Of a stretch of 47,386 nucleotides of DNA, positions 7,864-38,983 are shown piece after piece (positions within the stretch are counted from its first letter, which is position 1; each line of letters starts with the position of its first letter). The stretch is from assembly GCA_038045765.1 (NCBI GenBank), contig JBBSXN010000002.1, positions 84,450 through 131,835 on the forward strand. Direction: 5' to 3'. Origin of the DNA: Nanobdellota archaeon. Its GTDB lineage: Archaea > Nanobdellota > Nanobdellia > Pacearchaeales > GW2011-AR1. The position numbers and the translations under genes are program-made. Below the pieces are notes generated by a model. That model searched no databases. It was not told where the DNA came from and saw only the letters and a list, made by a program, of their open reading frames with translations.

Positions 7864-8979
7864 ATGAAAATACTTGAATTGACTAATTATTCAGCTGGTG
7901 GATGTGGAGTATTTGCAAGAGTAAAACAGGAAGCACAGTTATTGGTTGAAAGAGGTCATGAAGTTATGATTATGAGTTCATACTTTGAAAAAGGCACCAA
8001 TAAAATTATGCCTTTAGAAGATAAACTAGGAAATATTAAGATAAGAAGATTTCCTGCTAGTAAGATTGGTGGTGAGAGCTTTATGAGCTGGCATTTTGAA
8101 AAAGAAGCCGAAGAATTTAGACCTGATGTTATAATTGCACACGGATATAGGCACCCCCATACAACAAGAGCATTATGTCTTAAGAAGAAAATTGACTGTA
8201 AAGTTTTTTTGGTTACACATGCTCCATTCGCAAGAGATAGAAGGAGTATATTTGGTAAAATAGCTGTTGGATTTTATGATTTTTATGTAGGAAAGAAAAC
8301 TATAAATAATTTTGACAAGATATTTGCTATAACTTACTGGGAATATTTGTATCTTAATAAGTTGAAAGTTAAAGAAGACAAAATAGAATATGTGCCTAAT
8401 GGAATAGCTAAAGAGTATTTCTCAAAAGTTAGTAAGAAAAGAGATAAAAGAATATTATATAGTGGTAGAATTGCTCCTATAAAAAATCTTGAAGTTGTTG
8501 TGAAATCACTAAAAAATGTTAAAGATAAGAAAATAAAATTCTATATTTTGGGACCTGCTGAAAAAGAATATCTTGAAAAATTGCAAAGAATTATAACTCA
8601 AAATAGGCTAAATGAAAGAATTAAGATTATCTCTGAGAAATATGATAGGCCTCAGCATATTAAAGAATTGGATAAATCTTCAATATTTATTCTACCTTCA
8701 TTTAGTGAAGGTATGTCTCAATCACTAATTGAAGCTATGGCTAGAGAGTGTATCGTGATTGGTAGCGATAATTTAGGTAATGCTGATTTGATTAAAGATG
8801 AAGATAATGGATTTCTCTTCAAAAATGATGATGAAAATGATTTGACTAAGGTTATTGATGAAATTCTTAATATGGATGATAAAGAGATATTAATAATTAG
8901 AAAAAATGCCAGAGAAAGCGTTGAAAAGTTCAGATGGAGTAACATAATTGATAAATTAGAGAGATTAATTAGAGTATAG
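7864..8979 (+). CDS. Glycosyltransferase family 4
   Basis: YVPNGI, YSGRIAPIKNL, FILPSFSEGMSQSLIEAMA (ExxxxxxxE). Confidence 0.92.
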   Translation: MKILELTNYSAGGCGVFARVKQEAQLLVERGHEVMIMSSYFEKGTNKIMPLEDKLGNIKIRRFPASKIGGESFMSWHFEKEAEEFRPDVIIAHGYRHPHTTRALCLKKKIDCKVFLVTHAPFARDRRSIFGKIAVGFYDFYVGKKTINNFDKIFAITYWEYLYLNKLKVKEDKIEYVPNGIAKEYFSKVSKKRDKRILYSGRIAPIKNLEVVVKSLKNVKDKKIKFYILGPAEKEYLEKLQRIITQNRLNERIKIISEKYDRPQHIKELDKSSIFILPSFSEGMSQSLIEAMARECIVIGSDNLGNADLIKDEDNGFLFKNDDENDLTKVIDEILNMDDKEILIIRKNARESVEKFRWSNIIDKLERLIRV

Positions 8980-9663
8980 AGTTTTGTCTTCTATATCTGC
9001 CCAGTAAAAAGCTTGTTTTCTTAGAGCACAAGCTAAACAGTCCATGCAATGTAGATTTTTCTTTGGAGAGTAACAGCTAAATGTACTAGCTAAATCTACT
9101 TTCATTTTATCCCCTAGAATGATAATATCTTCTTTGTCTTTATCTATTAAAGGAGCTTTTATTTCTATTTTAAAAGAGCAGGAGGTTGATAGAAGTGAAT
9201 TCAATTTTATCAAGAAATCTTTTGTTGTGTCTGGATAAGAATCTTTACCTTCACATTTGAAGCCAATAAAAATATCTGATTGGATATTTGTATTTATGAA
9301 TTCTGAATCGGCTAGAGCTGAAGCGTAGCTTAGAAAAACCAAATTTCTACAGGGCACGTACCATTTCTTTGATTCAATTTCTGTATCTTTTAGGTCTTCT
9401 TTATTTATTTTTTTAGTTTTACCGGAAATGTTTATCAGAGAAGTTGAGAGATTTGCTAATTCAGGTAGTGAAATTTCTATAAATCTTGCATTTATCTCTT
9501 TAGCACATAATTTTGATGCTTTTCTCTCTTCGTTTAATGCTTTTTGATGGTAGTTAAAAAATAGAATTGTTATTTTATCATATTTTAATTTATTTTTAAC
9601 ATAGTGGGAAGTTACAACACTATCTAGGCCACCCGAGCATAGGATAATCGCTTTTTTACTCAT
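8965..9663 (-). CDS. queC: 7-cyano-7-deazaguanine synthase QueC family protein
   Basis: SGGLDS PP-loop, FNYHQ, YVPCRN, YPDT, and the zinc site SCY...HCMDCLAC. Confidence 0.88.
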   Translation of the reverse strand: MSKKAIILCSGGLDSVVTSHYVKNKLKYDKITILFFNYHQKALNEERKASKLCAKEINARFIEISLPELANLSTSLINISGKTKKINKEDLKDTEIESKKWYVPCRNLVFLSYASALADSEFINTNIQSDIFIGFKCEGKDSYPDTTKDFLIKLNSLLSTSCSFKIEIKAPLIDKDKEDIIILGDKMKVDLASTFSCYSPKKNLHCMDCLACALRKQAFYWADIEDKTLYSN

Positions 9664-9713
9664 ATTTATCTGAATTTAATAAGGTTTATAAGTTTACACT
9701 CATAAATTTAGAT

Positions 9714-9911
9714 ATGAAGAAAAAAGCGATAGAAATTAAGAAAGGTGATTTAATATTAGTTGGAGGAGAAGAGTTGAAAGTTGAAGAAGTTGAAAGTTCT
9801 GATATAAGTAAACAGGGTTCTAAGAAGGTAAGGATGGTTGCTAAGAAGAAGGATGGTGAAAGTATAGTAATAATTAGGCCTGCCGATTATCCTGTTGAGT
9901 TAGGTAAATAA
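9714..9911 (+). CDS. aIF5A/EF-P N-terminal (SH3/KOW-like) domain-only protein
   Basis: Aligns by eye to the aIF5A N-domain: AIEIKKGDLILVGGEELKVEEVESSDISKQGSKKVRMVA versus typical V.SLK.G.YV.IDGEPC.I.....SKPGKHG.AKAR. No C-terminal OB domain. Confidence 0.7.
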   Translation: MKKKAIEIKKGDLILVGGEELKVEEVESSDISKQGSKKVRMVAKKKDGESIVIIRPADYPVELGK

Positions 9912-9912
9912 C

Positions 9913-10818
9913 ATGATTGATATTATTATTACTTCATATAATGAGCCGAAATCTACATTAAGGGCTGTTGAAACATTTCTAAAGCAAATTGGTAAAAAAG
10001 ATAGAATAACTGTTGTTGATCCATTTCCAGAAGTTCAGGTTTATCTTAATGAAAATGTTAAAGATAAAAGATTTAACTTTTTCCTCGACTCTGGAGAAGG
10101 AAAGAGCTATGCATTAAATCTCTTATTTCAAGAATATGCTTCTTCAAATAAGGAAGATATATTCATCCTAACGGATGGGGATGTCCATACTTCTCCAAAT
10201 AGTGTGAAAGATATAAAAAATGCATTTAAAGATAGGAAAGTTGGATGCGTTACTGGAAAGCCTGTAAGTTTAGATGGAAAAGATACAAAATATGGATTTT
10301 GGGCTCATGTTGCTTTTTCTGGAATTCATAAAGTTAGGAAGAAATTATCTAAAAATAAAGAATTTCTTGAATGCTCAGGATATTTATTTGCAATTCGTAA
10401 AAATGTCATATTAGACTTCCCTCTAGAAACCAGTGAAGATGGCATTATTCCTTATCTTTTCTGGAAAAAAGGATATCATATTAAATATGTTGAAAATGCA
10501 GAAGTTTATGTTAAAAATCCTGATAACTGGAGGGATTGGATTGCTCAGAAAGTCAGAAATATAAAAGCTCATGAAAACTTAAATAAAATTGCTCCTGAAA
10601 TGCCTAGAACAAAATCTTTATGGCATGAGATAAAACATGGAGGATTATATGCCTTAACTCTTCCTAAAGGTATTAAAGAATTCTTCTGGCTAATGCAGTT
10701 ATATCCTGCTAGACTTTATCTTTATATTAAAGCTTATAAAGAAATGAAAAAAGATAAAAAATATGCAGATGGTTGGAGAGGCGAGCATAATATTGAAAGT
10801 ACTAAGCCCTTGGATTAA
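9913..10818 (+). CDS. Glycosyltransferase family 2
   Basis: IIITSYNE, GKSYALN, LTDGD, SGYLFAIR, SEDG, QKVRN (QxxRW-like). Confidence 0.88.
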   Translation: MIDIIITSYNEPKSTLRAVETFLKQIGKKDRITVVDPFPEVQVYLNENVKDKRFNFFLDSGEGKSYALNLLFQEYASSNKEDIFILTDGDVHTSPNSVKDIKNAFKDRKVGCVTGKPVSLDGKDTKYGFWAHVAFSGIHKVRKKLSKNKEFLECSGYLFAIRKNVILDFPLETSEDGIIPYLFWKKGYHIKYVENAEVYVKNPDNWRDWIAQKVRNIKAHENLNKIAPEMPRTKSLWHEIKHGGLYALTLPKGIKEFFWLMQLYPARLYLYIKAYKEMKKDKKYADGWRGEHNIESTKPLD

Positions 10819-11300
10819 TTCTTAAAAGTTTTAATTATCTTATCTATTATATTTGTCGTTGAGAATCCTTCTTCAAGGTCTAGGTAAATGCAATCTCCTT
10901 CCCAAGAAGAAATAAGTTCTTTCTCTTCAGAAACTCTGTCTTTTATAAAGCTTCCACCTTTTACATGCTTATGAGGCTTTATTTCTTTTATTATGCTAAG
11001 AGGCTTGTCTTCTTCAAAAATTACAATATAATCTACACATTCTAAGGCTGAAATCATAAATGCTCTTTCATCCTGACCGATTATTGGTCTTTTATCTCCT
11101 TTATTTTTCTTTATTGAACTATCGCTATTGAGTAAGACGATTAATATGTCTCCTAGTTTCTTCGCTTTTTGGAATAAGTTGACGTGAGCATAATGCAAAA
11201 TATCAAAGCTACCATTAGTTGTAACTATTGTCTTTCCTTCCTCTCTTAGGTTCTCGGCAATTTCCTTTATTTCTTTAGTTGTTTTTATCTTATTTTCCAT
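10815..11300 (-). CDS. HldE/RfaE domain II-type nucleotidyltransferase (heptose-1-phosphate adenylyltransferase-like)
   Basis: TTNGSFDILHYAH, LNSDSSI...KGDKRPI, HVKGG, EGFSTTNII. Confidence 0.85.
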   Translation of the reverse strand: MENKIKTTKEIKEIAENLREEGKTIVTTNGSFDILHYAHVNLFQKAKKLGDILIVLLNSDSSIKKNKGDKRPIIGQDERAFMISALECVDYIVIFEEDKPLSIIKEIKPHKHVKGGSFIKDRVSEEKELISSWEGDCIYLDLEEGFSTTNIIDKIIKTFKN

Positions 11301-11709
11301 TTTTATTCTTGAAGTTTTTTAACCAAATCTCCAATTCTTTAAAGCTAGGCAGTATTGGCATTGAAGCTAGAATAATTGAAGAGAGATATTCTAATGCTTC
11401 TTCTTTTGACTCATCAGTCTTTAATCCTATGGAAGGTATTCCTTTGGCGTAGGCATAACCTAGTTCCCAGGCAGTTCCTGCACCTACATGGAAGCCATCT
11501 AATGAGGCAATTACTAAATTTACTTCTTTAAAACCTTGGATAATATCTCCTTCGAATATTTTATCTATGTCTTTTATGCCCTTAGCTAATCCTACATCTC
11601 TATGTGGGAGAAATGTTGTGAAACCTAGAGATTTGCAGAGAGAGTCTATTTTTTCTAATATTTCTATTTCATTTTCTGTGTGAATTTTACCTGCTATGTA
11701 TGCTTTCAT
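11290..11709 (-). CDS. Nucleoside 2-deoxyribosyltransferase / Rcl-like N-glycosidase
   Basis: AYIAG, FLPHRD, GTAWELGYAYAKGIP catalytic Glu motif. Confidence 0.85.
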   Translation of the reverse strand: MKAYIAGKIHTENEIEILEKIDSLCKSLGFTTFLPHRDVGLAKGIKDIDKIFEGDIIQGFKEVNLVIASLDGFHVGAGTAWELGYAYAKGIPSIGLKTDESKEEALEYLSSIILASMPILPSFKELEIWLKNFKNKNGK

Positions 11710-11762
11710 GTAAAATAGTCCTATTGGAGAATATTTAAAAGCTACGATGCTTGAAAGTTTTT

Positions 11763-12752
11763 ATGAAAATATGTATTATAAAACTTGGAGCGGATGGAGA
11801 TGTTCTTAGAACGCTTCCTTTAGCTAAGGCTTTGAAAGATAAATATAGAGAAGCAGAGATAACTTGGATAACTAAGGGTGATGTTAAATCTCTGCTTGAA
11901 AATATAGACTATATAAAAAATGTTTCAACTGTGCCTTATTTTGGGCCTGAAAAGTTTGATTTATTATATAATTTTGATATTGATGATGAAGCTATAAAAC
12001 TAGCAGATAAAATTAAAGCAGATAAAAAATATGGTTTTGGAAAAGACGGAGATTATCCTACTGCATTAAACTCTGGTGCTTCCTATTATCTTAATACTAT
12101 GTTTGATGATGAATTGAAGAAAAGTAATAATAAGACATATCAAGAAATGATGTTTATGGCTGCTGAACTTCATTATGAGGTGGAGAAATATAATTTAGTA
12201 TTAGATGAAAATGATAAAGAGTATGCTGATAAATTTAAATCTGGAAATAATTTTGGAAAGAAGAAAGTCATAGGTATTCATATGGGTGCTTCCTCAAGAT
12301 GGCCGAGTAAAGTCTGGGCTGAAAGCAAGGTTATTGAATTCATAAAGATGGCTGACAATGAAGGATATGAGATTATTTTATTTGGAGGACCAAATGAAGT
12401 TGAAAAGCATGAACTGATTATTAATAAATTAAAGAAAGAAGGAGTAAATGTCTATAGAAATAATCCTAATAATACTAAAAGAGAATTTGCCTCTTTAGTA
12501 AACTTGTGTGAGGTTATGATCTGTTCAGACAGTCTTTCTTTACATGTGTCTATAGGCTTGGGAAAGAAAACTATATGTCTATTCTTCTGCACAAGCCCTG
12601 ATGAAGTTGAAGATTATGGGATATTGAAAAAGGTTGTATCACCTCTCTTCAAAAATTTCTTCCCAGAAAAAATGAATGAATACAGTAAAGAGCTTGTTGA
12701 GAGTATAAGTGCTGAGGAAGTTATGAAGAATGTTGAAGAATCTTTAAGATAG
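11763..12752 (+). CDS. Glycosyltransferase family 9 (ADP-heptose heptosyltransferase-like)
   Basis: IIKLGADGDVLRTLP, IGIHMGASSRWPSKVW, ICSDSLSLHVSIGLGK. ATG 11763 lies about 23 nt after a TTTAAA box. Confidence 0.88.
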   Translation: MKICIIKLGADGDVLRTLPLAKALKDKYREAEITWITKGDVKSLLENIDYIKNVSTVPYFGPEKFDLLYNFDIDDEAIKLADKIKADKKYGFGKDGDYPTALNSGASYYLNTMFDDELKKSNNKTYQEMMFMAAELHYEVEKYNLVLDENDKEYADKFKSGNNFGKKKVIGIHMGASSRWPSKVWAESKVIEFIKMADNEGYEIILFGGPNEVEKHELIINKLKKEGVNVYRNNPNNTKREFASLVNLCEVMICSDSLSLHVSIGLGKKTICLFFCTSPDEVEDYGILKKVVSPLFKNFFPEKMNEYSKELVESISAEEVMKNVEESLR

Positions 12753-12847: not shown

Positions 12848-14374
12848 ATGAATGAGGAGAGAAAGATAGAGGAAAAGAAAGAGAAAGTAAGAGAATTTTT
12901 TAAAGAGCCATATAAGCTTGCTATTGGATTAATATTGTTGATTGGTATTGCCGTAAGATTATATTTTTATAATGCTGTTAAAGATCAAGCGCATTGGTGG
13001 GATACTCTTGCCTATGGTGGGCTTGCTAAAAATATTATATTAGACTTATGGAGTGATAATGCTTTCCTTGCACATGAAGCTATAATAAGGCCTCCTTTGT
13101 TGCCTTGGATTTGGTCAATTCTATTAAAATTCGGATTGTCTGATGCGGGAACTATCCTATTGCTTGAGATAATTCCTTCTGTTCTTTGTATTTGGTTTGT
13201 TTATCTCATTGCTAAAGAATTGTATGATGAAAAAATTGGTTTGATATCTGCTTTTATAGCATCATTTTCTTGGGTATTTTTATTTTATTCCCTTAGGATT
13301 ATGACAGATATACCATCTTTATTTTTCTCACTTGTTAGCATATATTATTTTTTAAAAAGCTATGAAGAATTGAAAACAAAGGAATTTGCTATATCTGTTG
13401 CTTTCCTTGCATTAGCAGTTATAACTAGATATTCGTATGGGTTGATTGCAGTAGTTTATATAATATTTTTGGCGATAGTGCATAAGCATCATTTTCTAAA
13501 GAAAAAAGGCTTCTGGATTGGAGGGATTACTGGAGCAATACCTTTAGTATTATTCTTTATATTTAATCTATTTCGGTATGGTTCTTTTCTTCCTGCAAGT
13601 AGTGTTTATAGTCAGAGTGCAAGCGAGAAGGCTAGTTTTGGATTTTATATTTTAGAATTTGTACCTTATATTCTTCAAAAATTATTTTTAGTAATTTTCT
13701 TATTGGGACTTGCCTTGGTTTTATGGGAGATTATAATTGGATTTGATACTCTCTCTAAAATAAAGAGAATTAGAAGCCATATATTTAACACATTATTAAT
13801 TGCTGGAGTTTTCTTCTTTTTCATATTTATTATTAGAGCTGCTGAGGATAGATATCTTATGACTGCTATGCCTGTAATGTTTATATTTATAAGTTTAGTA
13901 TTGATGGAAATTTATAAGTTAGTTAAAAATTATTCTAAGAATCTTGCTATTTTGTTAGTTGCATTTATATTGTTATTTGGAGCTTATTCACAATTTACAT
14001 TTGGTAAGACTTTGATTGATAATAAAAAAGATTCTTACAAGCAAATGAAGGAAGTATTTGAGTGGATTAAAGACAATACTGAAAAAGAGGCAATACTTGG
14101 AGGAGAAGGCATAGATCCTTATGCTATTTATTATTCTGAGAGAAAGATTGTTTTGAATTATACTGCTGATGATCTACCAGGTTATAGTGGGCGTGCAGAT
14201 TATATGATTTTACATAGATTTGAGTATCAGACTGAAAAATTGGTTAATTATGTTAATGAAAATACTGGTGAAGGTAAAATATTTACTCCACTATATGCTA
14301 GTTTCTTTGATGCCACTCAACAACAACCTGCAGTTATAGTCTATAAAGTCAATAAAGATAAAATCAGATTATAA
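12848..14374 (+). CDS. GT-C fold membrane glycosyltransferase (ArnT/PMT-like)
   Basis: Many TM helices, WWDTLAY acidic first-loop motif, RPPLLP, IMTDIP, DRYL. Confidence 0.8.
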   Translation: MNEERKIEEKKEKVREFFKEPYKLAIGLILLIGIAVRLYFYNAVKDQAHWWDTLAYGGLAKNIILDLWSDNAFLAHEAIIRPPLLPWIWSILLKFGLSDAGTILLLEIIPSVLCIWFVYLIAKELYDEKIGLISAFIASFSWVFLFYSLRIMTDIPSLFFSLVSIYYFLKSYEELKTKEFAISVAFLALAVITRYSYGLIAVVYIIFLAIVHKHHFLKKKGFWIGGITGAIPLVLFFIFNLFRYGSFLPASSVYSQSASEKASFGFYILEFVPYILQKLFLVIFLLGLALVLWEIIIGFDTLSKIKRIRSHIFNTLLIAGVFFFFIFIIRAAEDRYLMTAMPVMFIFISLVLMEIYKLVKNYSKNLAILLVAFILLFGAYSQFTFGKTLIDNKKDSYKQMKEVFEWIKDNTEKEAILGGEGIDPYAIYYSERKIVLNYTADDLPGYSGRADYMILHRFEYQTEKLVNYVNENTGEGKIFTPLYASFFDATQQQPAVIVYKVNKDKIRL

Positions 14375-27858: not shown

Positions 27859-28143
27859 ATGAAATTGAAACAGAAGGCTTCTGCTAAAATGCATAGAAGA
27901 TATATACTATTATCTAAAACTGATAAAAAAACTATTGAAAGAGTAGTATTAGATTATATAGGCATATTAGGATGGGCTGAAGCAGCGCCTGTTTTTGTCA
28001 GTGATGATTGGATTGAAAATGGGCAGATAATTCTTGCTGTGGAAAGAAAGTCTCTGGAAAAAGTTAGAGCATCATTTGAAATGAGTAATGAGAAAATTAA
28101 AATATTGAGAGTTAGTGGAACTCTAAAAGGATTGAAAAAATGA
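27859..28143 (+). CDS. RNase P protein Pop5/Rpp14 family (shortened)
   Basis: RRYILL near the N-terminus, YIGILG, and VSGTLKGL at the C-terminus. Confidence 0.75.
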   Translation: MKLKQKASAKMHRRYILLSKTDKKTIERVVLDYIGILGWAEAAPVFVSDDWIENGQIILAVERKSLEKVRASFEMSNEKIKILRVSGTLKGLKK

Positions 28144-28631
28144 GTAATAAAAAAGCACAGATACAATTAAGCTTTGGAATGATTTTCTCAATTATAATTA
28201 TAATAGCGACTGTGGCTGTTGCTTTCTATTTTATACAGAAATTCTTAGATAGTAGTGATTGTGTTGTTTTGGGAGATTTCAAATCAAAACTACAGAGCGA
28301 TATAGATGCTGCTTGGAGGTCTCCTGTTGCACAGAAAAAGTTTACTGGTAGTTTAACTAGAGGCATAGAATCTGTATGTTTTGGAAGTATTGCCGATAGA
28401 GCACTAGGAGCTTATCCTGATGAGTATGCTGAATTCAGCTATTTAGTTGATAGTGATAAAAATCTTTTCTTATATCCTAGCAATGAAGCTTGTAATGGTA
28501 AGGCCGCAGAATTGAAATTGAATAATGTTGATTCTTCTGGCTTTTTCTGTAAAAAGGTTATTAATGGTAAGATTGAATTGAATATTATTAAAGAGTCTGC
28601 TACAGATTCTTTGGTGAAAGTAAAAGAATAA
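28140..28631 (+). CDS. Type IV pilin-like protein (class III signal peptide)
   Basis: MSNKKAQ followed by a hydrophobic helix; Cys-containing ectodomain. Confidence 0.7.
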   Translation: MSNKKAQIQLSFGMIFSIIIIIATVAVAFYFIQKFLDSSDCVVLGDFKSKLQSDIDAAWRSPVAQKKFTGSLTRGIESVCFGSIADRALGAYPDEYAEFSYLVDSDKNLFLYPSNEACNGKAAELKLNNVDSSGFFCKKVINGKIELNIIKESATDSLVKVKE

Positions 28632-28655
28632 AAAGCACTTGTTCTTCTAGATAGT

Positions 28656-29651
28656 ATGTATGATAAAAGAGGATTTGAGTTTAGTTTTGCTTGGCTTTTT
28701 TCTATAATTATTGGAGGAGTAATAATTTTCCTTGCAATATACTTTTCTACTAATCTCATTAAAAATGAGATTATTGTTCAAAATACACTTAACTCAAAAG
28801 AATTGGAGATACTTCTTCAGCCTCTTGAAACACAAAGTTTTGAGACAAGCATTAAGCCTAAAGTTATACAATTTCCTGATGAAACTAGGCTAGAAATAGA
28901 TTGTTCTTATCAGAAGCCATTTGGATATTCTAAAGTTAAGACTTCAACAAGACAGAAGATAGGTGAAGAATGGCAGGAAGGAGGAGTTGGAAGTACATTG
29001 AATAATAAGTATATATTTGGCGAAAAGGTATTAGAAAGTAAGGATTTTGAAATATTTACTCAACAATTAACTATGCCCTTTAAGATTGGAGATCTAACTT
29101 TTATTTGGAGTGGTGAATATTGTTTTGTTAATGCTCCAAGTTATGTAGATGAAGACTTTAATTCTCTAGGAATAAATGAATCTATACAAATTGTTGAAAG
29201 TGTAGATCAGTGTAAAGCTAAAAGTAAGAAAGTGTGTTTTGGGGCTGGAACTCTTGTTTCTTCATGTGATATAAGTGTTGATACCAATCTGGAAAGAGTG
29301 AAAAAACAAGGAAGATTTGTATATTATAAGGGGCCTTTAATTTATGGAGCAATATTCTCTGATGTTGATAATTATGATTGCAACATTAAAAGAATTATGA
29401 TTAAAGCAGGTAGCCTTGCTGGTGTTTATTATGATAAGAGTTCATTGATAGCTAGTAGATCTGATAATAGCTGTAGTATTGAATTACAACCTTTGCTTAA
29501 AACATATGCTGATAGGGCTAATATAAATTCAAGTAAAAATATGCAAGAAGTTTATATCGACTTTAATGAATTATATAATTTGGCTGGAGAGCTTGATGAT
29601 TCCCAAGGAAAATTAATATGTAGTCTCTGGAAAGAGGAGTTTAGAAAATGA
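28656..29651 (+). CDS. Pilin-like surface protein (class III signal peptide)
   Basis: MYDKRG-FEFSFAWLFSIIIGGVIIFLA; multiple Cys. Confidence 0.65.
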   Translation: MYDKRGFEFSFAWLFSIIIGGVIIFLAIYFSTNLIKNEIIVQNTLNSKELEILLQPLETQSFETSIKPKVIQFPDETRLEIDCSYQKPFGYSKVKTSTRQKIGEEWQEGGVGSTLNNKYIFGEKVLESKDFEIFTQQLTMPFKIGDLTFIWSGEYCFVNAPSYVDEDFNSLGINESIQIVESVDQCKAKSKKVCFGAGTLVSSCDISVDTNLERVKKQGRFVYYKGPLIYGAIFSDVDNYDCNIKRIMIKAGSLAGVYYDKSSLIASRSDNSCSIELQPLLKTYADRANINSSKNMQEVYIDFNELYNLAGELDDSQGKLICSLWKEEFRK

Positions 29652-30157
29652 GAAAGATAGAGAATAAAACTGGGCAGTTAAAGATACAGGAGATGGCTTT
29701 TGTGCTTATTGCATTTATGGTTTTTTTCTCGCTTGTTGCTTTACTTTTCTTAAAATTTAGAATATCTGGAATACAAGCTTCTGCAGAAGGCAGCAAGGAA
29801 GAAGTTGCGAGTAGACTTGCATTGGTTCTAGCATCTACTCCCGAACTTTCTTGGAGTGAGTGTACTGGATGTATAGACTTAGACAAAGCTATTGTGTTAA
29901 AAAATAGGACTGAATATAAGCAATTATGGAAACTGGACTATTTTGCTATTAAAAGGATTTATCCTGTAAAAACGGTTGGTGAGTGTAGTTTGGGAAAATA
30001 TCCTGAATGTGATACTCTCACTTTGATAAATGGAAATGATTTTGGTATAAGCTCAAAAGCTTTTGTCTCTTTATGCAGGTATGATTTTATTGAAGATAGG
30101 AAAGTTTGTGAGCTTGGAGAATTATACGTTTCGGGAGGTAGCTTGAAGAATGGTTAA
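29648..30157 (+). CDS. Type IV pilin-like protein (class III signal peptide)
   Basis: NKTG-QLKIQEMAFVLIA hydrophobic helix; six Cys. Confidence 0.7.
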   Translation: MRKIENKTGQLKIQEMAFVLIAFMVFFSLVALLFLKFRISGIQASAEGSKEEVASRLALVLASTPELSWSECTGCIDLDKAIVLKNRTEYKQLWKLDYFAIKRIYPVKTVGECSLGKYPECDTLTLINGNDFGISSKAFVSLCRYDFIEDRKVCELGELYVSGGSLKNG

Positions 30158-30668
30158 TAAGAAAGGTCAGGAAGAAATTGTGGGATTTGCATTGGTAATT
30201 ATAATTGTGGCTGTTGTTGGATTATTGCTTCTTGGGCTGGCTATTAGATCTGGAGATAAAGGTGCGAAGTCAGATAATTATGAAATAAGGCAGTTTCTAG
30301 ATAGTTCTATGCATGTTAGTAGCGATTGTTCTTTAAGAAGTAATATAGATTATGCTTCTGTAAGCGATTTAGTTAGGGAATGTTATAGAAATCAAGCTAG
30401 AGAGTGCTTATCTTCTGGAGAGAAGGTTTGTTTAGCACTTAATCGGAGCTTACAAGGCATTATTAATTCAGGATTGAAGATTGGACCTGAAAGGCCGAAT
30501 AAGGGTTTTATGATGAATATTAGCTTTGAGCAGAAAACAGGAGAAAGCTCAAGCTTCCTTGAATTAAAAGATGGAAAGTGCGATAAAGACTATACTGCTG
30601 GAGAGTATCTTATACCTGAAGATAGAAGTAAGGGATTAATCGTGGTGAGATTGACTTTATGCAAATAG
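30150..30668 (+). CDS. Type IV pilin-like protein (class III signal peptide)
   Basis: MVNKKG-QEEIVGFALVIIIVAVVGLLLL; six Cys. Confidence 0.72.
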   Translation: MVNKKGQEEIVGFALVIIIVAVVGLLLLGLAIRSGDKGAKSDNYEIRQFLDSSMHVSSDCSLRSNIDYASVSDLVRECYRNQARECLSSGEKVCLALNRSLQGIINSGLKIGPERPNKGFMMNISFEQKTGESSSFLELKDGKCDKDYTAGEYLIPEDRSKGLIVVRLTLCK

Positions 30669-31028
30669 CTATACTTGAATAGAAATAAGGATTGTATCTA
30701 CAACAAGTGTGGGTTTTAGCCGCTCTCTTTTACCTGTTTTTTCAGAAGTCATGTCTATAAAGCCAAATCTCTCTAAAAGCTTAATGTCTGTTGATACTGC
30801 CTTGAAATCTCGCTTTAATATCTTGGCTAAATGATATATGGAATTAGGCTTTTTTTCTTTTATTACATGTAACATCTTAGCCTTCTCATTACTTAGTAAT
30901 CTCCTGAGTGAAGTAAGGCCTTCAAAATCATAGTCTTCTTCATTGCTCGTCCACTTCTTGAAGAAAGTGTTAAAAGTTCCTGATTTATCGACGATAAAAA
31001 TTTCTCGTGTTTTAGTTTTTTGCGCCAT
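30669..31028 (-). CDS. Winged-HTH transcriptional regulator
   Basis: LRRLLSNEKAKMLHVIKEKKPNSIYHLAKILKRDFKAVSTDIKLLERFGFI. Start set at MAQKTK. Confidence 0.85.
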   Translation of the reverse strand: MAQKTKTREIFIVDKSGTFNTFFKKWTSNEEDYDFEGLTSLRRLLSNEKAKMLHVIKEKKPNSIYHLAKILKRDFKAVSTDIKLLERFGFIDMTSEKTGKRERLKPTLVVDTILISIQV

Positions 31029-31078
31029 AGTATATATAGGTCTATTAATTACATATATATAGATAATAAGGTTATATA

Positions 31079-31105
31079 AATATATGTTTTCTTTAAACAT
31101 ATATT
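31079..31105. promoter_or_regulatory. Candidate operator: perfect 11-bp inverted repeat
   Basis: aatatatgttt-(5 nt)-aaacatatatt in the divergent HTH / S-layer intergenic region. Confidence 0.45.
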
Positions 31106-31235
31106 AGTGTGTGATAAGGTGATCAGATTCTTGCTGACGAAAATCAGTGTATTCACTATGATTTACACCACAAGCTTTATAAAGGAACTTCATAGGTTAA
31201 CTGCCACTACCTCGATAGTGCGAAATTTCAGGGCA

Positions 31236-31250
31236 TAAGTTTTTAAAGGG
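31236..31250 (+). promoter_or_regulatory. Candidate TATA box for the S-layer gene
   Basis: aagtttttaaagg lies about 25 nt upstream of a hairpin starting at 31270. A second candidate (ctttataaa) lies near 31176. Confidence 0.45.
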
Positions 31251-31269
31251 TTTTTCCTTTTGTAATATT

Positions 31270-31400
31270 ACTCTAATAAGCTTAGAGTCACGCATAATGT
31301 GCCCTAAACATATTATGTAAATGGCGGGCTTCGGCCTCCCGAAAGGGGATCCTGAGGGATTGCCAATGACTAAAAAGCTGAAAGGGGGTTTAGAAAAAAG
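31270..31400 (+). ncRNA. Structured 5' leader of the S-layer mRNA containing a four-way junction (31322-31365)
   Basis: 5' hairpin actctaa/ttagagt, then tggcg[ggc-ttcg-gcc][tccc-gaaa-gggg][atcc-tgag-ggat]tgcca, then a G-rich SD-like run before the ATG. Confidence 0.6.
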
Positions 31401-34097
31401 ATGAAATTTAATTTTAAGAAGATTGCATCTGTTCTTGCAGGAACTGTATTAATGAGTTCGACACTAGCTTTTGCTGCTGCAGCAAACTATCCAGCACCAT
31501 TCGTAAAGACTGGTAATGCTGATGTATACGTAGTATACGGTAGTGCGCCTGGAGCTGAATTTGACCTAGTGGCTGTAGCTGATATTACAACAAACTTGCA
31601 AGCAGGCTTGGCCAAACAGACAGCAACTTCTGGAACAAGTGGAGCGAGTACAAGCGCAACCGGAGAAAACTATCCTTTATTCACAAGTTCCTCTGAACTG
31701 TTTTTAAACAGTACATTGGACAGCGTAGTAAAAACATTGACTCCTACTGAATTACCAACAATCTTAGCAGACGACACCTTCGACGGTGACACAACTGCAA
31801 CATATGAGCAAAGAATCACTCTTGGAAGCAACCCAATACTTAGTTTTGCGAAGCAACCAACTGATGATGATGACCCTCAATATGGATTGACACTTGGTAC
31901 TACTGTTGGAACTCAATATGTTTACAACGCTACAGTTGTATTTGATACAGCTGTTAACTTTACTCATGCTGACTCAAAAGGTCAGGAATTGAGTATCTTT
32001 GGACAGAAATTCACAATCGGTTCTGCAACTACAAACACAAAACTTATTTTGTTCAAATCATCTGAAAAGATATACTTAGACTCTGAAAGCAATCCTTCCC
32101 AAACTGTTACAGTTGCGGGTATGGAATATACTGTATCTCTTGTAGCTGCTACTGATACCAGTGCAACTGTCAAGGTTACAGATGCTTCAGGAAAGAGTGA
32201 ACAGAAAGAAGTAAACGAAGCAGCATCAAAGAAAGTAAATGGAGTTGAAGTTGGTGTTAATAGCGCTGATGAATCAACAGCATTGAACAAATTGACTGCT
32301 GAAGTAGTTGTTGGAGCAGATAGAGTAACTTTACAGGATGGAAATGCTGTAAAGATAGGTTCTGACGAAGACACAGTTGATGGAACAAATGTTGAGTTTA
32401 GAGACTCATCGAATTCTAGAACAACCTATATGGGTAATGTAACTAGAATGTTATTCCAAGCTACTGCTGTTGATAGCTCTCATGATGCCATGGTTCCTGG
32501 AGATTCATTCACTGACCCAGTATTCGGATCTTTCAAAGTTGACTTTAGCGGTATTAGTATCGCTGCAGACTCAACTTCAAGAGAAGATATTGTAGTGAAG
32601 AACTCTGGAAACGACAAAATGAGTGTTAAGTTTAAGGACTATTCTGGTGCTGAAAAGACCGTTACATACGTTTATAACAAAACAGATTCTGACGGAAGTG
32701 GAATGCAATTAGCTGACTCTGATGGAGACAATATTATTGTTGAAGAAAACGCTTTGGTTAACAAATCCTACTATGTTGTTCTTGCAAACAAGGACAGAGG
32801 AGGATTGTATGAAGTAACTGGTTTAACTAACAGTTCTTCTACAACTGCTAGCGATGACGAATTGACAGTAAGAAATGTATTCACAGATGCTTCAACTACT
32901 GCAAAAGCTACTTCAGAAGGTTCTGGTACAATCACTGTTGAAGGATTATCATTTAGTTATACATACACTGGTGCTCAAACACTATCTGATGTAGCTAGAC
33001 AGGTAAAATTCAACTATCCTGAAAGTACTGGAAACGACAAAATATACTTCCCTACTATTAAAACAAGTAAGGGAGCATTATTAGCGTTCTATCAACCAAC
33101 TAACATCAACTTGACTTCACAGTCATTAGATGCAGCAAATATACAATTACCTAACGGTAATGGTTATACTGCTGTTGCTGTTGCTAACGCTGGAGGTCTA
33201 CATAACTATACTTTTGGAGGAACTACTGCTGTTAATACAACAGGTGCAAGTGGAGCATCATCAAGTGGTGCTATTACTGTTGGACAATTAACATACAACG
33301 TTAGTTCAAGAGCTATTGTTAATACGACTACTCTTAACTTGCTTTCTCCTGAGGGAGGAAACATTGTAAGACCTGCTGTTGTTATATTTGAAGAAAAGGA
33401 TGACAATAATGCATATCATGCATTAATAGTTACCTTGGACGCAGGATATGACGGAGACAGTGCTGGAATTGGAGTAAACGATGTTGTAAGAACTTACTCA
33501 AAAGATACAAACGGTGGTAATGGTGGAAACGAAGTGCAACTAGAAAGCAACTCTGACTTATATAAGGACGCTGACTTATGGGGATCTATATCTACTCTTG
33601 ATAAAGCAGATAGTGATCAAACCCAGGCAACAGTTAGTTATCCTGATAATCAAGTTCAGGGATATGTTTATGTAGCTGCAAACGATGCTGCTATTACAAC
33701 TGAATCTGGATCTACTGGTTCTGGAAGTGTTAAGGAACTCGGTTCTGTACTTGTAAAAGATTCTGAAGTTGCATCATTACCTTCTAAGAACTTAGTTGTT
33801 GTTGGAGGTTCATGTATCAACGCTGAATCTGCTAGATTGCTAGGTGTCTCTCCTGCTACATGCGGAGCTGACTTCACTGCAAAAGCTGGTGTGGGAGCTG
33901 GTCAATTTTTGATCCAGACTTTCGCTAAAGGCACTGATAAAGTCGCAACATTAGTTGCTGGCTATAACGCTGCTGATACCCAGAATGCTGCAAAGGTCTT
34001 GACAACCAAAGCTGATCTTGACACAAGTGCTGGCAAAAAGTACGTAAGTACTAGTGCTACCGCTGTTGAACTTAAGACTACTGCTACAACTGTTTAA
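31401..34097 (+). CDS. Major S-layer glycoprotein
   Basis: Signal peptide MKFNFKKIASVLAG...AAAANYPAPFV, VYVVYG and C-terminal NLVVVGGSCIN motifs (Methanococcales/DPANN S-layer type); Thr/Ser/Asp-rich; about 12 N-X-S/T sequons; C-ending codon bias. Confidence 0.88.
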   Translation: MKFNFKKIASVLAGTVLMSSTLAFAAAANYPAPFVKTGNADVYVVYGSAPGAEFDLVAVADITTNLQAGLAKQTATSGTSGASTSATGENYPLFTSSSELFLNSTLDSVVKTLTPTELPTILADDTFDGDTTATYEQRITLGSNPILSFAKQPTDDDDPQYGLTLGTTVGTQYVYNATVVFDTAVNFTHADSKGQELSIFGQKFTIGSATTNTKLILFKSSEKIYLDSESNPSQTVTVAGMEYTVSLVAATDTSATVKVTDASGKSEQKEVNEAASKKVNGVEVGVNSADESTALNKLTAEVVVGADRVTLQDGNAVKIGSDEDTVDGTNVEFRDSSNSRTTYMGNVTRMLFQATAVDSSHDAMVPGDSFTDPVFGSFKVDFSGISIAADSTSREDIVVKNSGNDKMSVKFKDYSGAEKTVTYVYNKTDSDGSGMQLADSDGDNIIVEENALVNKSYYVVLANKDRGGLYEVTGLTNSSSTTASDDELTVRNVFTDASTTAKATSEGSGTITVEGLSFSYTYTGAQTLSDVARQVKFNYPESTGNDKIYFPTIKTSKGALLAFYQPTNINLTSQSLDAANIQLPNGNGYTAVAVANAGGLHNYTFGGTTAVNTTGASGASSSGAITVGQLTYNVSSRAIVNTTTLNLLSPEGGNIVRPAVVIFEEKDDNNAYHALIVTLDAGYDGDSAGIGVNDVVRTYSKDTNGGNGGNEVQLESNSDLYKDADLWGSISTLDKADSDQTQATVSYPDNQVQGYVYVAANDAAITTESGSTGSGSVKELGSVLVKDSEVASLPSKNLVVVGGSCINAESARLLGVSPATCGADFTAKAGVGAGQFLIQTFAKGTDKVATLVAGYNAADTQNAAKVLTTKADLDTSAGKKYVSTSATAVELKTTATTV

Positions 34098-34115
34098 GAA
34101 CAATTGAAGAAAAGT

Positions 34116-34170
34116 AATTTATTTTTTTTATTTTTTTCTTCTTTTATTTTTTCTCCCCTTAAGGGAGAAA
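34116..34170 (+). terminator. T-tract terminator plus hairpin downstream of the S-layer gene
   Basis: About 35 nt of T runs followed by tttctccc-cttaa-gggagaaa. Confidence 0.65.
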
Positions 34171-34251
34171 GTTTCGGCATCGCTTTTTGATTGAAATTTT
34201 TATATTTCTGTTTTTGGTAACTTTTTTAAATACCTAATTTGTTAGAATAGT

Positions 34252-34821
34252 ATGAGGCAAATAGGAAAAGTTGAAGATCCCGATAAAAGTAAAAAGAGAA
34301 ATGTTATGTATATGGCTCTCTTTATGCTTTTGACTCTTGTTTTAAGTACTGTTGGTTTTGCTTTCTATTATAATGATACTTCTAATACTAATACTGCTCC
34401 CTTAGTAGAAGGAGAATCTGCTCCTTTGACTGTACAACAACAAGGAAATAGATGGGCTGTACCTTTTAGAGGACAGTATCTTTATTTTGCATATCCTCCT
34501 AACGTTACTTCTAATGTTGAGATTGATATTCAGAAAGAGGTAGGTGATTATTATGGTGCTAATTTATATGTCGATTATAAGAAAGAATACATTTATTCGG
34601 AGATAAAAGATACTTTAGGAAGATATGTTCTGGAAACTTCTAAGGCTTGTTATGGCTCATGTCTTGAAAATATACCTGAAAAGAATTGTGGTGAAAATAT
34701 GATTGTTTTCAATGAGAGTAAAGTAGAAAGAATTTACCAAAAAGATAAATGTATATTTATAGACGGTGATTTAAGAACGGTTGATGTTGCTTTGTATAAG
34801 ATTTTAGGCATAACTGCTTAG
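34252..34821 (+). CDS. Membrane-anchored hypothetical surface protein
   Basis: Basic N-terminus, one TM helix, four-Cys ectodomain. Confidence 0.75.
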   Translation: MRQIGKVEDPDKSKKRNVMYMALFMLLTLVLSTVGFAFYYNDTSNTNTAPLVEGESAPLTVQQQGNRWAVPFRGQYLYFAYPPNVTSNVEIDIQKEVGDYYGANLYVDYKKEYIYSEIKDTLGRYVLETSKACYGSCLENIPEKNCGENMIVFNESKVERIYQKDKCIFIDGDLRTVDVALYKILGITA

Positions 34822-34855
34822 AAAGATTTTAAAAGCTTCTTTAAGATAATATTGC

Positions 34856-35554
34856 ATGGCTGTTAGAAAAATAAGGAAGAAAAATGAAGAGAAAAGTTTA
34901 TTTGGTGAAAATGTAAATGGCTTAAATCAAAAAGGCAAGAAGATTCAGATTAGCTGGATGTGGTGGGCTTTAATGGTATTAGTGGTTGGTTTTTTTATAT
35001 TCTATTTTATTTTTTCAAAGATAGGTACTTTTGAATATGAGGGATTGGCTTTTGACAAACAGGGTTATGGGAAAGAACTTACATTATATCATCATTCTTA
35101 TTTTTATACTTATAATAAACAAACTTACAAAAATAATGTTTATTTAAGATTTGATCCTAGAGATAATGAGATTCCTGTTGATAGTGAAATTCTTTTCACT
35201 AAAGGAAGGACTGTTTATTTAGGTATAAATAACACGGGTATAATCAATTGTAGTGATAGCTCGATAGCTATTGGAACTATTAGTCAGTTTTTTGCAAATA
35301 ATCAGTTTGATTTGAAGCTAGGTACTCCTGATATTAATGAATCTAAAGAGAGAAAACAAGTACATGTTAATTGTGATAAAGCTGATGATGATACTGTCAT
35401 TATTATTCAATCTTCATACATGACTAAGATATCTACTCAAGGAAGTAGTTGTTATATTATTAATGTAAATCAATGTGAAATACAACCTGCTGTTGAGAAG
35501 TTTATAGTTAATTCACTTATAGATACTAAGGAATATAGAGATAGTTTGACATAA
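34856..35554 (+). CDS. Membrane-anchored hypothetical surface protein (possible paralog of the previous gene)
   Basis: Basic N-terminus, one TM helix, four-Cys ectodomain with a similar C-terminal layout. Confidence 0.75.
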   Translation: MAVRKIRKKNEEKSLFGENVNGLNQKGKKIQISWMWWALMVLVVGFFIFYFIFSKIGTFEYEGLAFDKQGYGKELTLYHHSYFYTYNKQTYKNNVYLRFDPRDNEIPVDSEILFTKGRTVYLGINNTGIINCSDSSIAIGTISQFFANNQFDLKLGTPDINESKERKQVHVNCDKADDDTVIIIQSSYMTKISTQGSSCYIINVNQCEIQPAVEKFIVNSLIDTKEYRDSLT

Positions 35555-36225: not shown

Positions 36226-36780
36226 TTATAATCTTTTAGAATGATTTTTACCTTTAACTTGTGAAAATAGATATTTAACGTCGGTAAAAATAGGTATATT
36301 TTTTATTTTAAAAAGTTTAATATTTATAAACCAAATTATAACTAAAAATAATGTGCTTCCAAAATACCAGGACAATTCATGCGTAAAGTTAAAATAACTT
36401 AAATTTTCTTTGTATAAATATGACAAATAAGTTATTCTTAAAGAATTTATTATTAGGAAAGATAATATTATAAAAAATAAACTCTTGATCCTCTTCTTTA
36501 ATTGCATCTCTGTTGAGAGATTTAAAATTATAAGTAACAAATAAGCAGAACCTGCTATGCATGCAGATATTAAAGTTATTTCTAAAGTATCTATGAATAT
36601 TGAATTGTTTTGTATGTAATTAGAATTGTAAATTAGACCTATTAGGAAATTTGAAAGGTGTAATGTTAAGGGTGTAAATATAGCATATATTAATTCTAAG
36701 TTTAAAGCAATTATCAACAATATTATATATCTTAAGCCTAAACTTAAAGCGAATTTATTTAATTTTAAATATTTACTCAT
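36226..36780 (-). CDS. Archaeosortase/exosortase-family transpeptidase (pacearchaeosortase-like)
   Basis: Multi-TM protein with the catalytic triad pattern LISAC(I)AG, INSLRI, FTH. Confidence 0.8.
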   Translation of the reverse strand: MSKYLKLNKFALSLGLRYIILLIIALNLELIYAIFTPLTLHLSNFLIGLIYNSNYIQNNSIFIDTLEITLISACIAGSAYLLLIILNLSTEMQLKKRIKSLFFIILSFLIINSLRITYLSYLYKENLSYFNFTHELSWYFGSTLFLVIIWFINIKLFKIKNIPIFTDVKYLFSQVKGKNHSKRL

Positions 36781-36835
36781 AAAAAAGGATAGTAAATAGA
36801 GTTTAAATTAGTAGTGATAATGTAAAAACAAAAAA

Positions 36836-38482: not shown

Positions 38483-38605
38483 GGTGATTTTTTGTTGTAA
38501 CTTTGTAATTACAGTGGTTTATAAATATTTCGGTTTTGGCAGGAAACATTGATTTTAACGAAGATTTAAATAAAAGAGAGATATTGATATTCTTAGAGGT
38601 GTAAT

Positions 38606-38983
38606 TTGATAAGAGCTAAAGAAAATCTCGTCGGTGCATGGGCATTTCTCATAGGTGTTGTCTTGGCAATTATTGTGGGAATTGTTACAGGTATATTTAC
38701 TTCGGTTAGTGTTACGCCATTAGTTTTGGGAATTTTATCAATTCTTGGCTTGTTTGTAGGTTTTTTCGTAGCTGAGAAAGATATAAGCACTTTCCTTATT
38801 GCTTCTATATCTTTAGTAGTTGTAAGCTATATAGGAATATCTGGATTAATACTTGGAGCAGCTATATCTGGCTTAAACATAGGTAATATCATCTCATCTG
38901 TTCTTCAATCCCTTCTCGCCCTATTCGTTCCAGCCACTATCGTTGTAGCTTTAAAGAGTGTTTTTAGTATTGCGAAGAGCTAA
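38606..38983 (+). CDS. Small four-TM membrane protein
   Basis: TTG start preceded by GAGGTG; almost entirely hydrophobic; FVPATIVVALK end. Confidence 0.75.
   Translation: MIRAKENLVGAWAFLIGVVLAIIVGIVTGIFTSVSVTPLVLGILSILGLFVGFFVAEKDISTFLIASISLVVVSYIGISGLILGAAISGLNIGNIISSVLQSLLALFVPATIVVALKSVFSIAKS

Follow-up and report, generated by a model that had tools for sequence, protein, structure and literature searches.

The window analysed here is a stretch of 47,386 nucleotides (nt) from contig JBBSXN010000002.1 of a Nanobdellota archaeon. It contains, at positions 9714 to 9911, an open reading frame (ORF) whose 65-residue product is a stand-alone domain I of archaeal translation initiation factor 5A (aIF5A) and is called mini-aIF5A below. 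The gene lies between a divergent queC-family gene and a co-directional gene for a family 2 glycosyltransferase (GT2). Sequence comparisons, gene order in related genomes and a co-folding model suggest that mini-aIF5A is a dedicated partner of the GT2 enzyme, acting as acceptor or adaptor in a conserved, glycan-related module, and that it is not the cell's IF5A. The probability of this reading is put at about one half. The elements at its centre are the following.

9714..9911, plus strand: mini-aIF5A ORF, 65 amino acids (aa), stand-alone aIF5A domain I, SH3-like barrel
9913..10818, plus strand: GT2, soluble, GT-A fold, 301 aa; resembles hyaluronan, chitin and cellulose synthases; translationally coupled to the mini-aIF5A gene
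8965..9663, minus strand: QueC-family PP-loop ATPase, 232 aa, divergent from the mini-aIF5A gene; PF06508, 155 bits
9664..9713, no strand: bidirectional promoter, 50 nt, between queC and the mini-aIF5A gene; TATA element TTTATAAG at 9685-9692

Mini-aIF5A is a complete aIF5A domain I

The protein has a mass of 7.2 kDa, and the TAA stop codon of its gene (9909-9911) is separated by the single base 9912 from the ATG of the GT2 gene at 9913. The initial annotation of this DNA had taken the ORF for the N-terminal domain alone of an aIF5A/EF-P protein; profile, profile-profile and structure searches all lead to IF5A domain I. Residues 3-62 match the NCBIfam aIF5A equivalog NF003076 (E = 8.9e-6) over positions 6-66 of the 129 in the profile, with a score of 25.4 bits, below the cut-off of 138 set for the whole protein. 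The Pfam family IF5A-like_N is matched with E = 0.0024 and 18.1 bits, under its cut-off of 27.1 bits. A profile built from 31 sequences of the mini-aIF5A family, searched against the PDB, has Pyrobaculum aerophilum aIF5A (1bkb) as its top match (E = 9.5e-8), and alignment of the family with 34 Pacearchaeota-type aIF5As by hhalign gives a probability of 96.7 % (E = 4.4e-10).

The AlphaFold2 model of mini-aIF5A has a predicted local distance difference test score (pLDDT) of 87.8. When it was compared with the PDB by Foldseek, all 31 matches at E <= 1e-3 were IF5A or EF-P chains; superposed on domain I of 1bkb it gives a query-normalized template modelling score (TMq) of 0.85 and a root-mean-square deviation of 1.5 A over 63 columns. 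The protein comprises the whole of domain I and, ending at residue 65, no part of the OB-fold domain II (PF01287). In all sequence alignments its K33 falls on the lysine of the GKHG motif, the hypusine lysine. Profile, profile-profile and fold comparisons thus confirm that the ORF encodes a real aIF5A domain I. The coordinates first assigned to queC, the mini-aIF5A gene, the 1-nt gap, GT2 and the HldE-type and deoxyribosyltransferase genes (see below) are all correct.

Distribution and conservation of the family

A scan of one genome per species yielded 81 relatives, 80 of which were kept as loci; counts out of 81 sequences or sources refer below to these 80 loci plus the window. The homologs are found in 80 species-level DPANN genomes of the Nanobdellota/Pacearchaeota type, carrying names such as Pacearchaeota, Woesearchaeota and Nanoarchaeota, and the look-alike clusters in the Atlas are likewise from Nanobdellota; the DPANN origin supposed in the initial annotation is correct. 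A word-indexed search returned 31 homologs of 64-70 aa with 59-85 % identity, and an exhaustive HMMER scan of 1.84 billion representatives gave 21 matches at E <= 1e-3, all of them 36-84 aa long. Length is nearly constant: 63-65 aa in 75 of 81 members, with all members between 56 and 72 aa. A search dedicated to longer or fused forms found no true one and produced only P0053 (323 aa), rejected because its extra N-terminal residues, encoded ahead of the true start, come from faulty ORF calling. P0037 (84 aa) was discarded too, being a chimera in which the N-terminus of GT2 is joined to the C-terminus of mini-aIF5A.

All 81 members share six residues (E27, S29, K38, R40, R55 and P56); K33 is kept in 80, and G35 and Y59 in 79 each. 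The conserved loop has the layout S29...K33-Q-G...K38, R40 and is complemented by a conserved C-terminal motif, IIRPxDYP. This motif and the MKKKA start, present in most members, are specific to the mini-aIF5A family. The loop context is mostly [IV][GS]KQG; GKQG is commonest, SKQG is the form in the window, and GKHG itself occurs in 7 of 81 members. Since most members have GKQG and seven have GKHG, the SKQG of the window represents the altered end of the family. That the loop lysine is kept in an altered context, as had been noted for the window alone (SKQG against GKHG), extends to most of the family, the majority of members having Q for H and, in addition, D for K before the loop tip. In 4 of 81 members the GKQG tip is replaced by a lysine-rich loop that is 4-9 residues longer, with queC and GT2 still adjacent; L050 (10001-10213) and L073 (10001-10213) are two of the four. 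Family members are basic (median isoelectric point 9.3, net charge +4), as is domain I of the neighbouring aIF5As (isoelectric point 9.34).

Three database entries for family members have been labelled automatically as 'translation elongation factor P/translation initiation factor 5A'. One locus, L017 (DAOTCN010000002.1), is labelled 'Candidatus Paceibacterota bacterium' and carries the archaeal GT4/queC/mini-aIF5A/GT2/PF05014/GT9/GT-C module, which looks like a labelling or binning error. The literature consulted, outside the supplementary neighbourhood tables of the QueC-family paper, describes neither a domain-I-only IF5A family nor a queC/mini-aIF5A/GT2 module. The relevant sections of a DPANN protein-family study report unexplained families specific to Pacearchaeota/Woesearchaeota and metabolism of scavenged nucleotides, with no mention of IF5A in these sections (PMC8204110).

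A paralog beside a canonical aIF5A

The family profile was searched against all stop-to-stop ORFs of 81 stretches (1.28 Mb, at most 20 kb per genome). It found mini-aIF5A in each and one further significant match, in L049, where the mini-aIF5A gene (10001-10192) and a gene for a 130-aa aIF5A (P0054; 15841-16230, minus strand) lie 5.7 kb apart on one contig. This aIF5A has the loop SKTGKHGASK and scores above both curated cut-offs (NF003076, 140.8 against 138; TIGR00037, 107 against 75.45); used as a query, it retrieves 3017 relatives of about 129 aa. The metagenome-assembled genome 'Pacearchaeota archaeon CG1_02_32_132' is the source of both a mini-aIF5A (P0019) and an aIF5A (P0093). Because L049 and CG1_02_32_132 each hold both proteins, mini-aIF5A is a paralog at least in these genomes, and the idea that it is the organism's only, truncated, aIF5A was rejected. 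The full-length aIF5A that the initial annotation had suggested looking for elsewhere in the genome is thus present in two genomes that bear mini-aIF5A.

A symmetric promoter and a coupled start codon

The palindromic core TTATAA (9686-9691) of the TATA element lies 28 nt from both the mini-aIF5A and the queC ATG. This position is maintained: in 67 of 80 loci TTTAWAA begins exactly 29 nt before the mini-aIF5A ATG, and in 75 of 80 it begins 28-30 nt before it. Among the 41 sources where the alignment placed both start codons, the intergenic distance is exactly 50 nt in 30, and the core stands at 28/28 nt from the two ATGs in 29. Such spacing suggests that one TATA box serves two leaderless transcripts, one on the mini-aIF5A side and one on the queC side. 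The octamer as such was rejected as a special element, TTTATAAR having 21 matches in the window against 24.7 expected; the distinctive feature of the TATA box is its fixed, symmetric position and not the frequency of the octamer. At the other end of the gene, the mini-aIF5A stop and GT2 start codons show a 4-nt overlap in 25 loci, and in 53 of 71 the distance between them is -11 to +4 nt, a geometry expected for translational coupling.

The trio is the centre of a seven-gene core

Of the 76 loci that offer 900 nt or more of upstream sequence, 70 have a divergent queC homolog within 250 nt of the mini-aIF5A gene and 74 have one within 1 kb. Downstream, a co-directional GT2 homolog starts within 150 nt of it in 69 of 72 loci with at least 1100 nt of sequence. 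In loci that extend at least 7 kb downstream, a PF05014 gene and a GT9 gene are each present in 54 of 57, and a GT-C (PMT_2) gene in 47 of 57. Clustering of the ORFs of all 81 sources gives these family counts: QueC 75, GT2 74, mini-aIF5A 73 (by ORF calling), GT4 64, GT9 63, PF05014 62 and GT-C 49, the next families being found in 29, 23 and 20. The neighbours of the trio in the window are as follows.

7864..8979, plus strand: GT4 glycosyltransferase, convergent with queC; frequent core member (64/81 sources)
10815..11300, minus strand: HldE domain II-type heptose-1-phosphate adenylyltransferase; TIGR02199, 170 bits, cut-off 181.5; not in the core
11290..11709, minus strand: PF05014 nucleoside 2-deoxyribosyltransferase-like protein, 139 aa; core (54/57 loci, 62/81 sources)
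11751..12752, plus strand: GT9 (heptosyltransferase-family) glycosyltransferase, divergent from the PF05014 gene; core (54/57 loci)
12848..14374, plus strand: PMT_2/ArnT-like GT-C membrane glycosyltransferase with 85 hydrophobic windows; core (47/57 loci, 49/81 sources)

GT4, QueC, mini-aIF5A, GT2, PF05014, GT9 and GT-C form a seven-gene core inside a fast-changing envelope-glycan island. The variable flanking families include sugar epimerases, aminotransferases, further glycosyltransferases, methyltransferases and flippases, as well as B12-radical-SAM enzymes, a PfkB kinase, a HAD phosphatase and AsnB-like amidotransferases. The queC/mini-aIF5A/GT2 trio stays fixed down to 41 % identity to the mini-aIF5A of the window, while outer synteny decays sharply. 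Since gene order beyond the seven-gene core falls off in this way, conservation of the trio is not mere residual synteny. The neighbourhood conservation across DPANN genomes that had been put forward as a check is thus observed, and it exceeds that of the surroundings. Of the two genes that had been described as following GT2, both are present and the PF05014 gene belongs to the core; the HldE-type gene does not, and was rejected as a member of the system, being near the mini-aIF5A gene in only 7 of 81 sources.

The GT2 enzyme and its predicted complex with mini-aIF5A

A fold search was needed for GT2, because its sequence gave no match in the PDB at E <= 0.01. The model (pLDDT 89.4) matches hyaluronan synthases 8smm (E = 5.2e-14) and 7sp7, the Pyrobaculum mannosyltransferase PcManGT and cellulose and chitin synthases, with 6yv7 and 5ej1 as further best matches. 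Residues D36, D59, D88-G-D90, E175-D176 and Q212..R215 are invariant in the GT2 family. Set against the synthase motifs D, D, DxD, ED and QxxRW, all positions but the Trp are invariant, and the Trp position is occupied by Asn. No transmembrane segment was found in GT2: over 19-residue windows the maximal Kyte-Doolittle value is 0.84, against a threshold of 1.6 that the GT-C enzyme, used as a control, passes in 85 windows.

One controlled co-fold of mini-aIF5A with GT2 was carried out, using row-matched alignments from the same loci (A2 and A4). The pair scored 0.68 (individual runs, 0.71, 0.68 and 0.67) and the best control, in which another protein took the place of GT2, 0.34; both partner-replaced controls gave 0.00. 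In calibration, 58 of 80 solved complexes and 2 of 110 mismatched pairs reach the mark used for such a test, figures only roughly valid for a co-fold that uses its own alignments. The runs share at least 73 % of contacts, and the pLDDT of the partners is at least 82. Co-folding of the two proteins, which the initial annotation had recommended, thus yields a model that supports binding of mini-aIF5A to GT2. We know of no IF5A-type domain whose structure has been solved together with a GT-A enzyme, and the solved enzyme complexes among the fold matches are those with EarP and deoxyhypusine synthase (DHS); for this reason it is judged unlikely that the pass reflects memory of a known structure.

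Confident contacts in the model involve residues 16-19, 36 and 51-55 of mini-aIF5A and residues 60, 66, 69-70, 73, 76-78, 164 and 167-168 of GT2. The interface holds the invariant residues I54 and R55 of mini-aIF5A and the invariant N69 of GT2. On our reading of the GT-A fold, the predicted contact sites on GT2, namely the helix that follows the D59 strand and the loop that links the GYLFAIR strand to E175-D176, would border the active-site cleft.

The C-terminal tail of GT2 (residues 287-301; 10771-10815) is predicted to be disordered (pLDDT < 50). Within it all members share W288 and R289, and at least 90 % of them have S296, T297 and D301. The tail lies outside the predicted interface with mini-aIF5A and may bind something else.

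A model for the mini-aIF5A/GT2 unit

In the model favoured here, mini-aIF5A would be a functional, lineage-specific aIF5A paralog made of domain I only, the ordinary two-domain aIF5A with its SKTGKHG loop being encoded elsewhere. Together with GT2 it would constitute one bicistronic unit, presumably leaderless, and the palindromic TATA would drive this unit and the divergent queC-family gene alike. The trio would form the fixed centre of the seven-gene core in the variable envelope-glycan island. Mini-aIF5A may dock through a face made of turn 16-19 and strand 51-55 onto helix alpha3 (60-78) and loop 164-168 of GT2, at a site on the GT-A domain beside the sugar-nucleotide cleft. This would leave the basic, invariant IF5A loop (S29, K33, G35, K38, R40) free at the cleft. 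The free loop could then be the acceptor in a transfer reaction, as EF-P domain I is for EarP; alternatively, it could be an arm that holds a phosphorylated or nucleotide-bearing ligand. A more specific proposal, in which enzymes of the module build covalently upon K33, whether by ATP-dependent deazaguanylation with 7-carboxy-7-deazaguanine by QueC, by glycosylation by GT2, or by both, is regarded as a long shot.

Several points weigh against a dedicated partnership. K33 is absent from the confident contacts with GT2: in the loop only S36 touches GT2, at residue 60, with an expected error of 7.5 A. The control with GT2 replaced, at 0.34, stands above the floor of 0.32, indicating that mini-aIF5A is somewhat 'sticky' in the model. 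The folds closest to that of GT2 belong to synthases directed at lipids or polymers and to a membrane-associated mannosyltransferase from an archaeon, and look-alike GT2 clusters, as a lead only, occur in archaeal phyla in which the mini-aIF5A family was not seen; because of this synthase-like fold and these look-alikes, GT2 may work without a protein acceptor. GT2 and GT-C enzymes make an ordinary polyprenol-sugar pair that needs no such partner. At the level of gene content, L041 keeps mini-aIF5A and queC and is missing the orthologous GT2; to this are added L016 and L020, which keep mini-aIF5A and GT2 with no adjacent queC. Finally, an aIF5A-like charge and the GKHG loop of some members make a role related to the ribosome or to DHS conceivable.

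Could mini-aIF5A still be a translation factor?

That at least two genomes encode a normal aIF5A as well strengthens the suggestion that mini-aIF5A is something other than a translation factor; a role linked to translation or DHS keeps a minor share of the probability. A minimal IF5A could act at the ribosomal E-site region or at the tRNA acceptor end, possibly after hypusination by DHS, and its place by queC and GT2 would then be inherited gene order without shared function. The protein has kept what such a role might demand: the whole of domain I, the lysine and the Gly that follows it, K38 and R40 matching the corresponding K and R of aIF5A, a charge equal to that of aIF5A domain I and, in 7 of 81 members, the GKHG loop itself. 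It is domain I that is engaged in the solved DHS-IF5A and EarP-EF-P complexes (8put, 8a0e, 5wxk), and domain I alone suffices for DHS. However, a canonical aIF5A coexists with mini-aIF5A, most members have Q for H and D for K near the loop tip, 4 of 81 have a loop that is 4-9 residues longer, and the IIRPxDYP and MKKKA motifs belong to this family only. Nor would inherited gene order be expected from a trio that remains fixed, down to 41 % identity of mini-aIF5A, as outer synteny decays, or from the frequent overlap of its stop codon with the GT2 start. A role in translation is thus held to be unlikely.

The QueC-family neighbour

The window QueC scores 126.9 bits against TIGR00364, below the cut-off of 150.3. 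The canonical QueC signature, according to those parts of the QueC-family paper that set it out, consists of SGGxDS, VPxRN, a Zn-Cys4 site, YxQxHxxE and YPDC (PMC13082051). In 50 QueC sequences, S10-G-G-x-D14-S15, P104, R106-N107, C197, C206, C209 and C212 are invariant; SGGxDS, VPxRN and the C(x)8CxxCxxC zinc site are kept by the module enzyme. Two elements differ, YxQ(x)5E standing for YxQxHxxE (the consensus, YGQxxLxxE, lacks the His and is longer by one residue) and YPDT for YPDC. At YxQ(x)5E the enzyme aligns to Cap9 (9nto) without a gap. Judged by its sequence, module QueC looks largely canonical with two signature positions altered. No queD or queE was found in the window or among the neighbour-family representatives ranked 8th to 45th.

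These features bear on the possibility that the QueC-family enzyme modifies mini-aIF5A. It would adenylate 7-carboxy-7-deazaguanine, and attack by the epsilon-amine of K33 would give a deazaguanylated lysine, which the PF05014 enzyme and the glycosyltransferases might elaborate further. QueC-family enzymes that ligate deazaguanine to proteins are reported to exist (10.1101/2025.04.06.647259; PMC13279940; PMC13082051), and the lack of the His of YxQxHxxE together with the Cap9-like YxQ(x)5E spacing brings the module enzyme closer to them. One symmetric promoter is common to queC and mini-aIF5A in nearly all loci, and in L041 mini-aIF5A stays with queC though the orthologous GT2 is absent; a PF05014-containing protein is, in the last of these sources, the main neighbour of another QueC-like cluster (PMC13082051). 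Yet the module enzyme is nearer to canonical Bacillus subtilis QueC (3bl5), which it matches over the full length with 97 bits, than to Cap9, matched in two pieces with 65 bits. Besides SGGxDS, VPxRN and Zn-Cys4 it retains the Tyr and Arg described as essential for preQ0 synthesis (PMC13082051), and archaea are stated there to require QueC for archaeosine anyway. Known acceptors in that account are N-terminal glycines (PMC13082051), whereas mini-aIF5A starts with MKKKA. The retention of mini-aIF5A and GT2 without an adjacent queC in L016 and L020 also tells against a QueC substrate, and modification by QueC appears distinctly improbable.

An anti-phage defence system was considered and rejected: PADLOC applied to 10 proteins of the module gave QueC-family matches and one weak NUDIX match, and the flanks are glycan genes. 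The QueC-family models of PADLOC score the window QueC at 83.8 bits (QueC) and 24.8 bits (QatC).

Two further possibilities are less probable still. Mini-aIF5A could be an adaptor that brings a nucleic-acid or nucleotide substrate, for instance a tRNA bearing 7-deazaguanine, to a glycosyltransferase. The joint retention of glycosyltransferases with a deazaguanine enzyme and a nucleoside-transferase-like enzyme would be accounted for in this way, QueC and the PF05014 protein each being paired divergently with a glycosyltransferase operon. Domain I of IF5A/EF-P contacts the acceptor end of the P-site tRNA, ribosome complexes being among the fold matches of mini-aIF5A, and in eukaryotes one enzyme of family GT2 and one of family GT4 glycosylate queuosine. 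Nevertheless, the variable flanking genes are all ordinary envelope-glycan genes, the presence of GT9 and GT-C suggests a function at the cell surface, and we know of no glycosylated archaeosine derivative; such an adaptor is thought very improbable. The last possibility, a decayed aIF5A remnant or a chance ORF, would fit the shortness of the ORF and a Pfam score under the gathering cut-off and is set aside in view of its occurrence in 80 species-level genomes, its length of 63-65 aa in 75 of 81 sources, the six residues kept in 81 of 81 members, the fixed TATA spacing and the confidently predicted fold.

Other features of the window

The 11710-11750 gap separates the PF05014 (minus strand) and GT9 (plus strand) genes, a second conserved divergent pair whose members are at most 100 nt apart in 41 of 54 pairs; it is without the rigid TATA geometry of the queC/mini-aIF5A pair. 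Positions 1-23000, about half of the window, constitute one glycosylation island, including a 906-aa STT3/AglB. Its genes encode several GT2 and GT4 enzymes, a DegT aminotransferase, a hexapeptide acyltransferase, a GFO/IDH oxidoreductase, a Wzx-like flippase and a GT4-family phosphosugar transferase. Besides the STT3/AglB oligosaccharyltransferase, the window encodes prefoldin subunits, Spt5-NGN, ribosomal protein L11 and archaeal SepF. The L11 ORF (45157-45903, minus strand; 248 aa) has L11 domains at residues 3-134 only, so that some 110 aa at the C-terminus form an extension. At 27859-35554 and 36226-41405 there are series of ORFs for which Pfam gives nothing at E <= 1e-5, among them an 898-aa ORF (31401-34097) and a 548-aa ORF (36836-38482). 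At 43125-43237 (minus strand) an Rfam tRNA match spans 113 nt on a 71-position model; ARAGORN found no tRNA in the window, and the match may be an intron-bearing archaeal tRNA. The ORF beside it (43264-44070, minus strand) has a LAGLIDADG_3 domain.

Significance of the module

IF5A/EF-P is universal, and its loop residue bears a different exotic modification in each lineage. Domain I freed from the ribosomal factor would represent a new evolutionary use, in which at least 80 species tie it to a GT2 and a QueC-family enzyme. Should the lysine carry a modification, it would add a new member to the series of hypusine, beta-lysine and rhamnose, and possibly a new substrate class for QueC-type ligases; mini-aIF5A would then serve, within a housekeeping module found in DPANN archaea, as a small acceptor or carrier whose modification is new to the IF5A family. 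Were QueC the enzyme that acts on K33, deazaguanylation would for the first time be seen to target a lysine, and for the first time to occur outside anti-phage defence. If mini-aIF5A is instead a subunit, it would be a new type of accessory protein for synthase-like GT2 enzymes. In each case the module is a conserved and so far unexplained core of the surface-glycan islands of Pacearchaeota-type DPANN archaea, whose biology depends, according to the relevant sections of one study, on cell-surface contact and scavenged nucleobases (PMC8204110).

Comparison with known systems

The best fold matches of GT2 are hyaluronan, chitin and cellulose synthases and PcManGT, and the D, D, DxD, ED and QxxR positions are invariant in it. 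Unlike the membrane GT2 synthases, the module enzyme has no transmembrane channel, carries Asn for the Trp of QxxRW and is only 301 aa long. We know of no small beta-barrel partner of the mini-aIF5A kind described for these synthases.

In QatB-QatC and CD-NTase-Cap9, as in the present module, a QueC-family gene is fixed beside a gene for a small or partner protein, and the YxQ(x)5E element is as in Cap9. Those systems are bacterial and anti-phage, and include an ATPase/nuclease or a CD-NTase; no QatA, QatB, QatD, CD-NTase or Cap10 was found among the window proteins, in the neighbour families scanned (ranks 8-45) or by PADLOC on the module proteins. The acceptor of Qat/Cap9 is, in the part of the source that deals with it, an N-terminal glycine (PMC13082051), whereas the only candidate in mini-aIF5A is an internal lysine, and module QueC is otherwise canonical.

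EfpL/YeiP offers a second IF5A/EF-P-family gene beside the main factor, as does mini-aIF5A, and the fold search returned an EfpL structure (8s8u). A full-length protein of 188 aa, EfpL acts on the ribosome. Mini-aIF5A, unlike EfpL, has one domain and stands in a glycan-cluster context.

With IF5A itself, mini-aIF5A shares the SH3-like barrel of domain I (PF21485), the position of the loop lysine, the flanking S, G, K and R residues and a basic charge. IF5A has two domains; mini-aIF5A is without OB-fold domain II, reaches 25.4 bits where the cut-off is 138, and is a second copy. The loop of IF5A is GKHG, that of mini-aIF5A mostly GKQG (SKQG in the window), and the IIRPxDYP and MKKKA motifs are its own.

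In the EF-P/EarP system a glycosyltransferase gene adjoins the gene for a domain I of the IF5A/EF-P family, as GT2 adjoins the mini-aIF5A gene (69 of 72 loci), and in the solved structures 5wxk and 6j7m EarP grips domain I of EF-P alone. EarP is a GT-B enzyme acting on arginine; the neighbour of mini-aIF5A, in contrast, is a GT2 of GT-A fold, and the tip of the mini-aIF5A loop is Lys. EF-P is full-length and the cell's working factor, whereas mini-aIF5A is a domain-I-only paralog, and its predicted interface with GT2 would be formed by the sheet edge and not by the loop.

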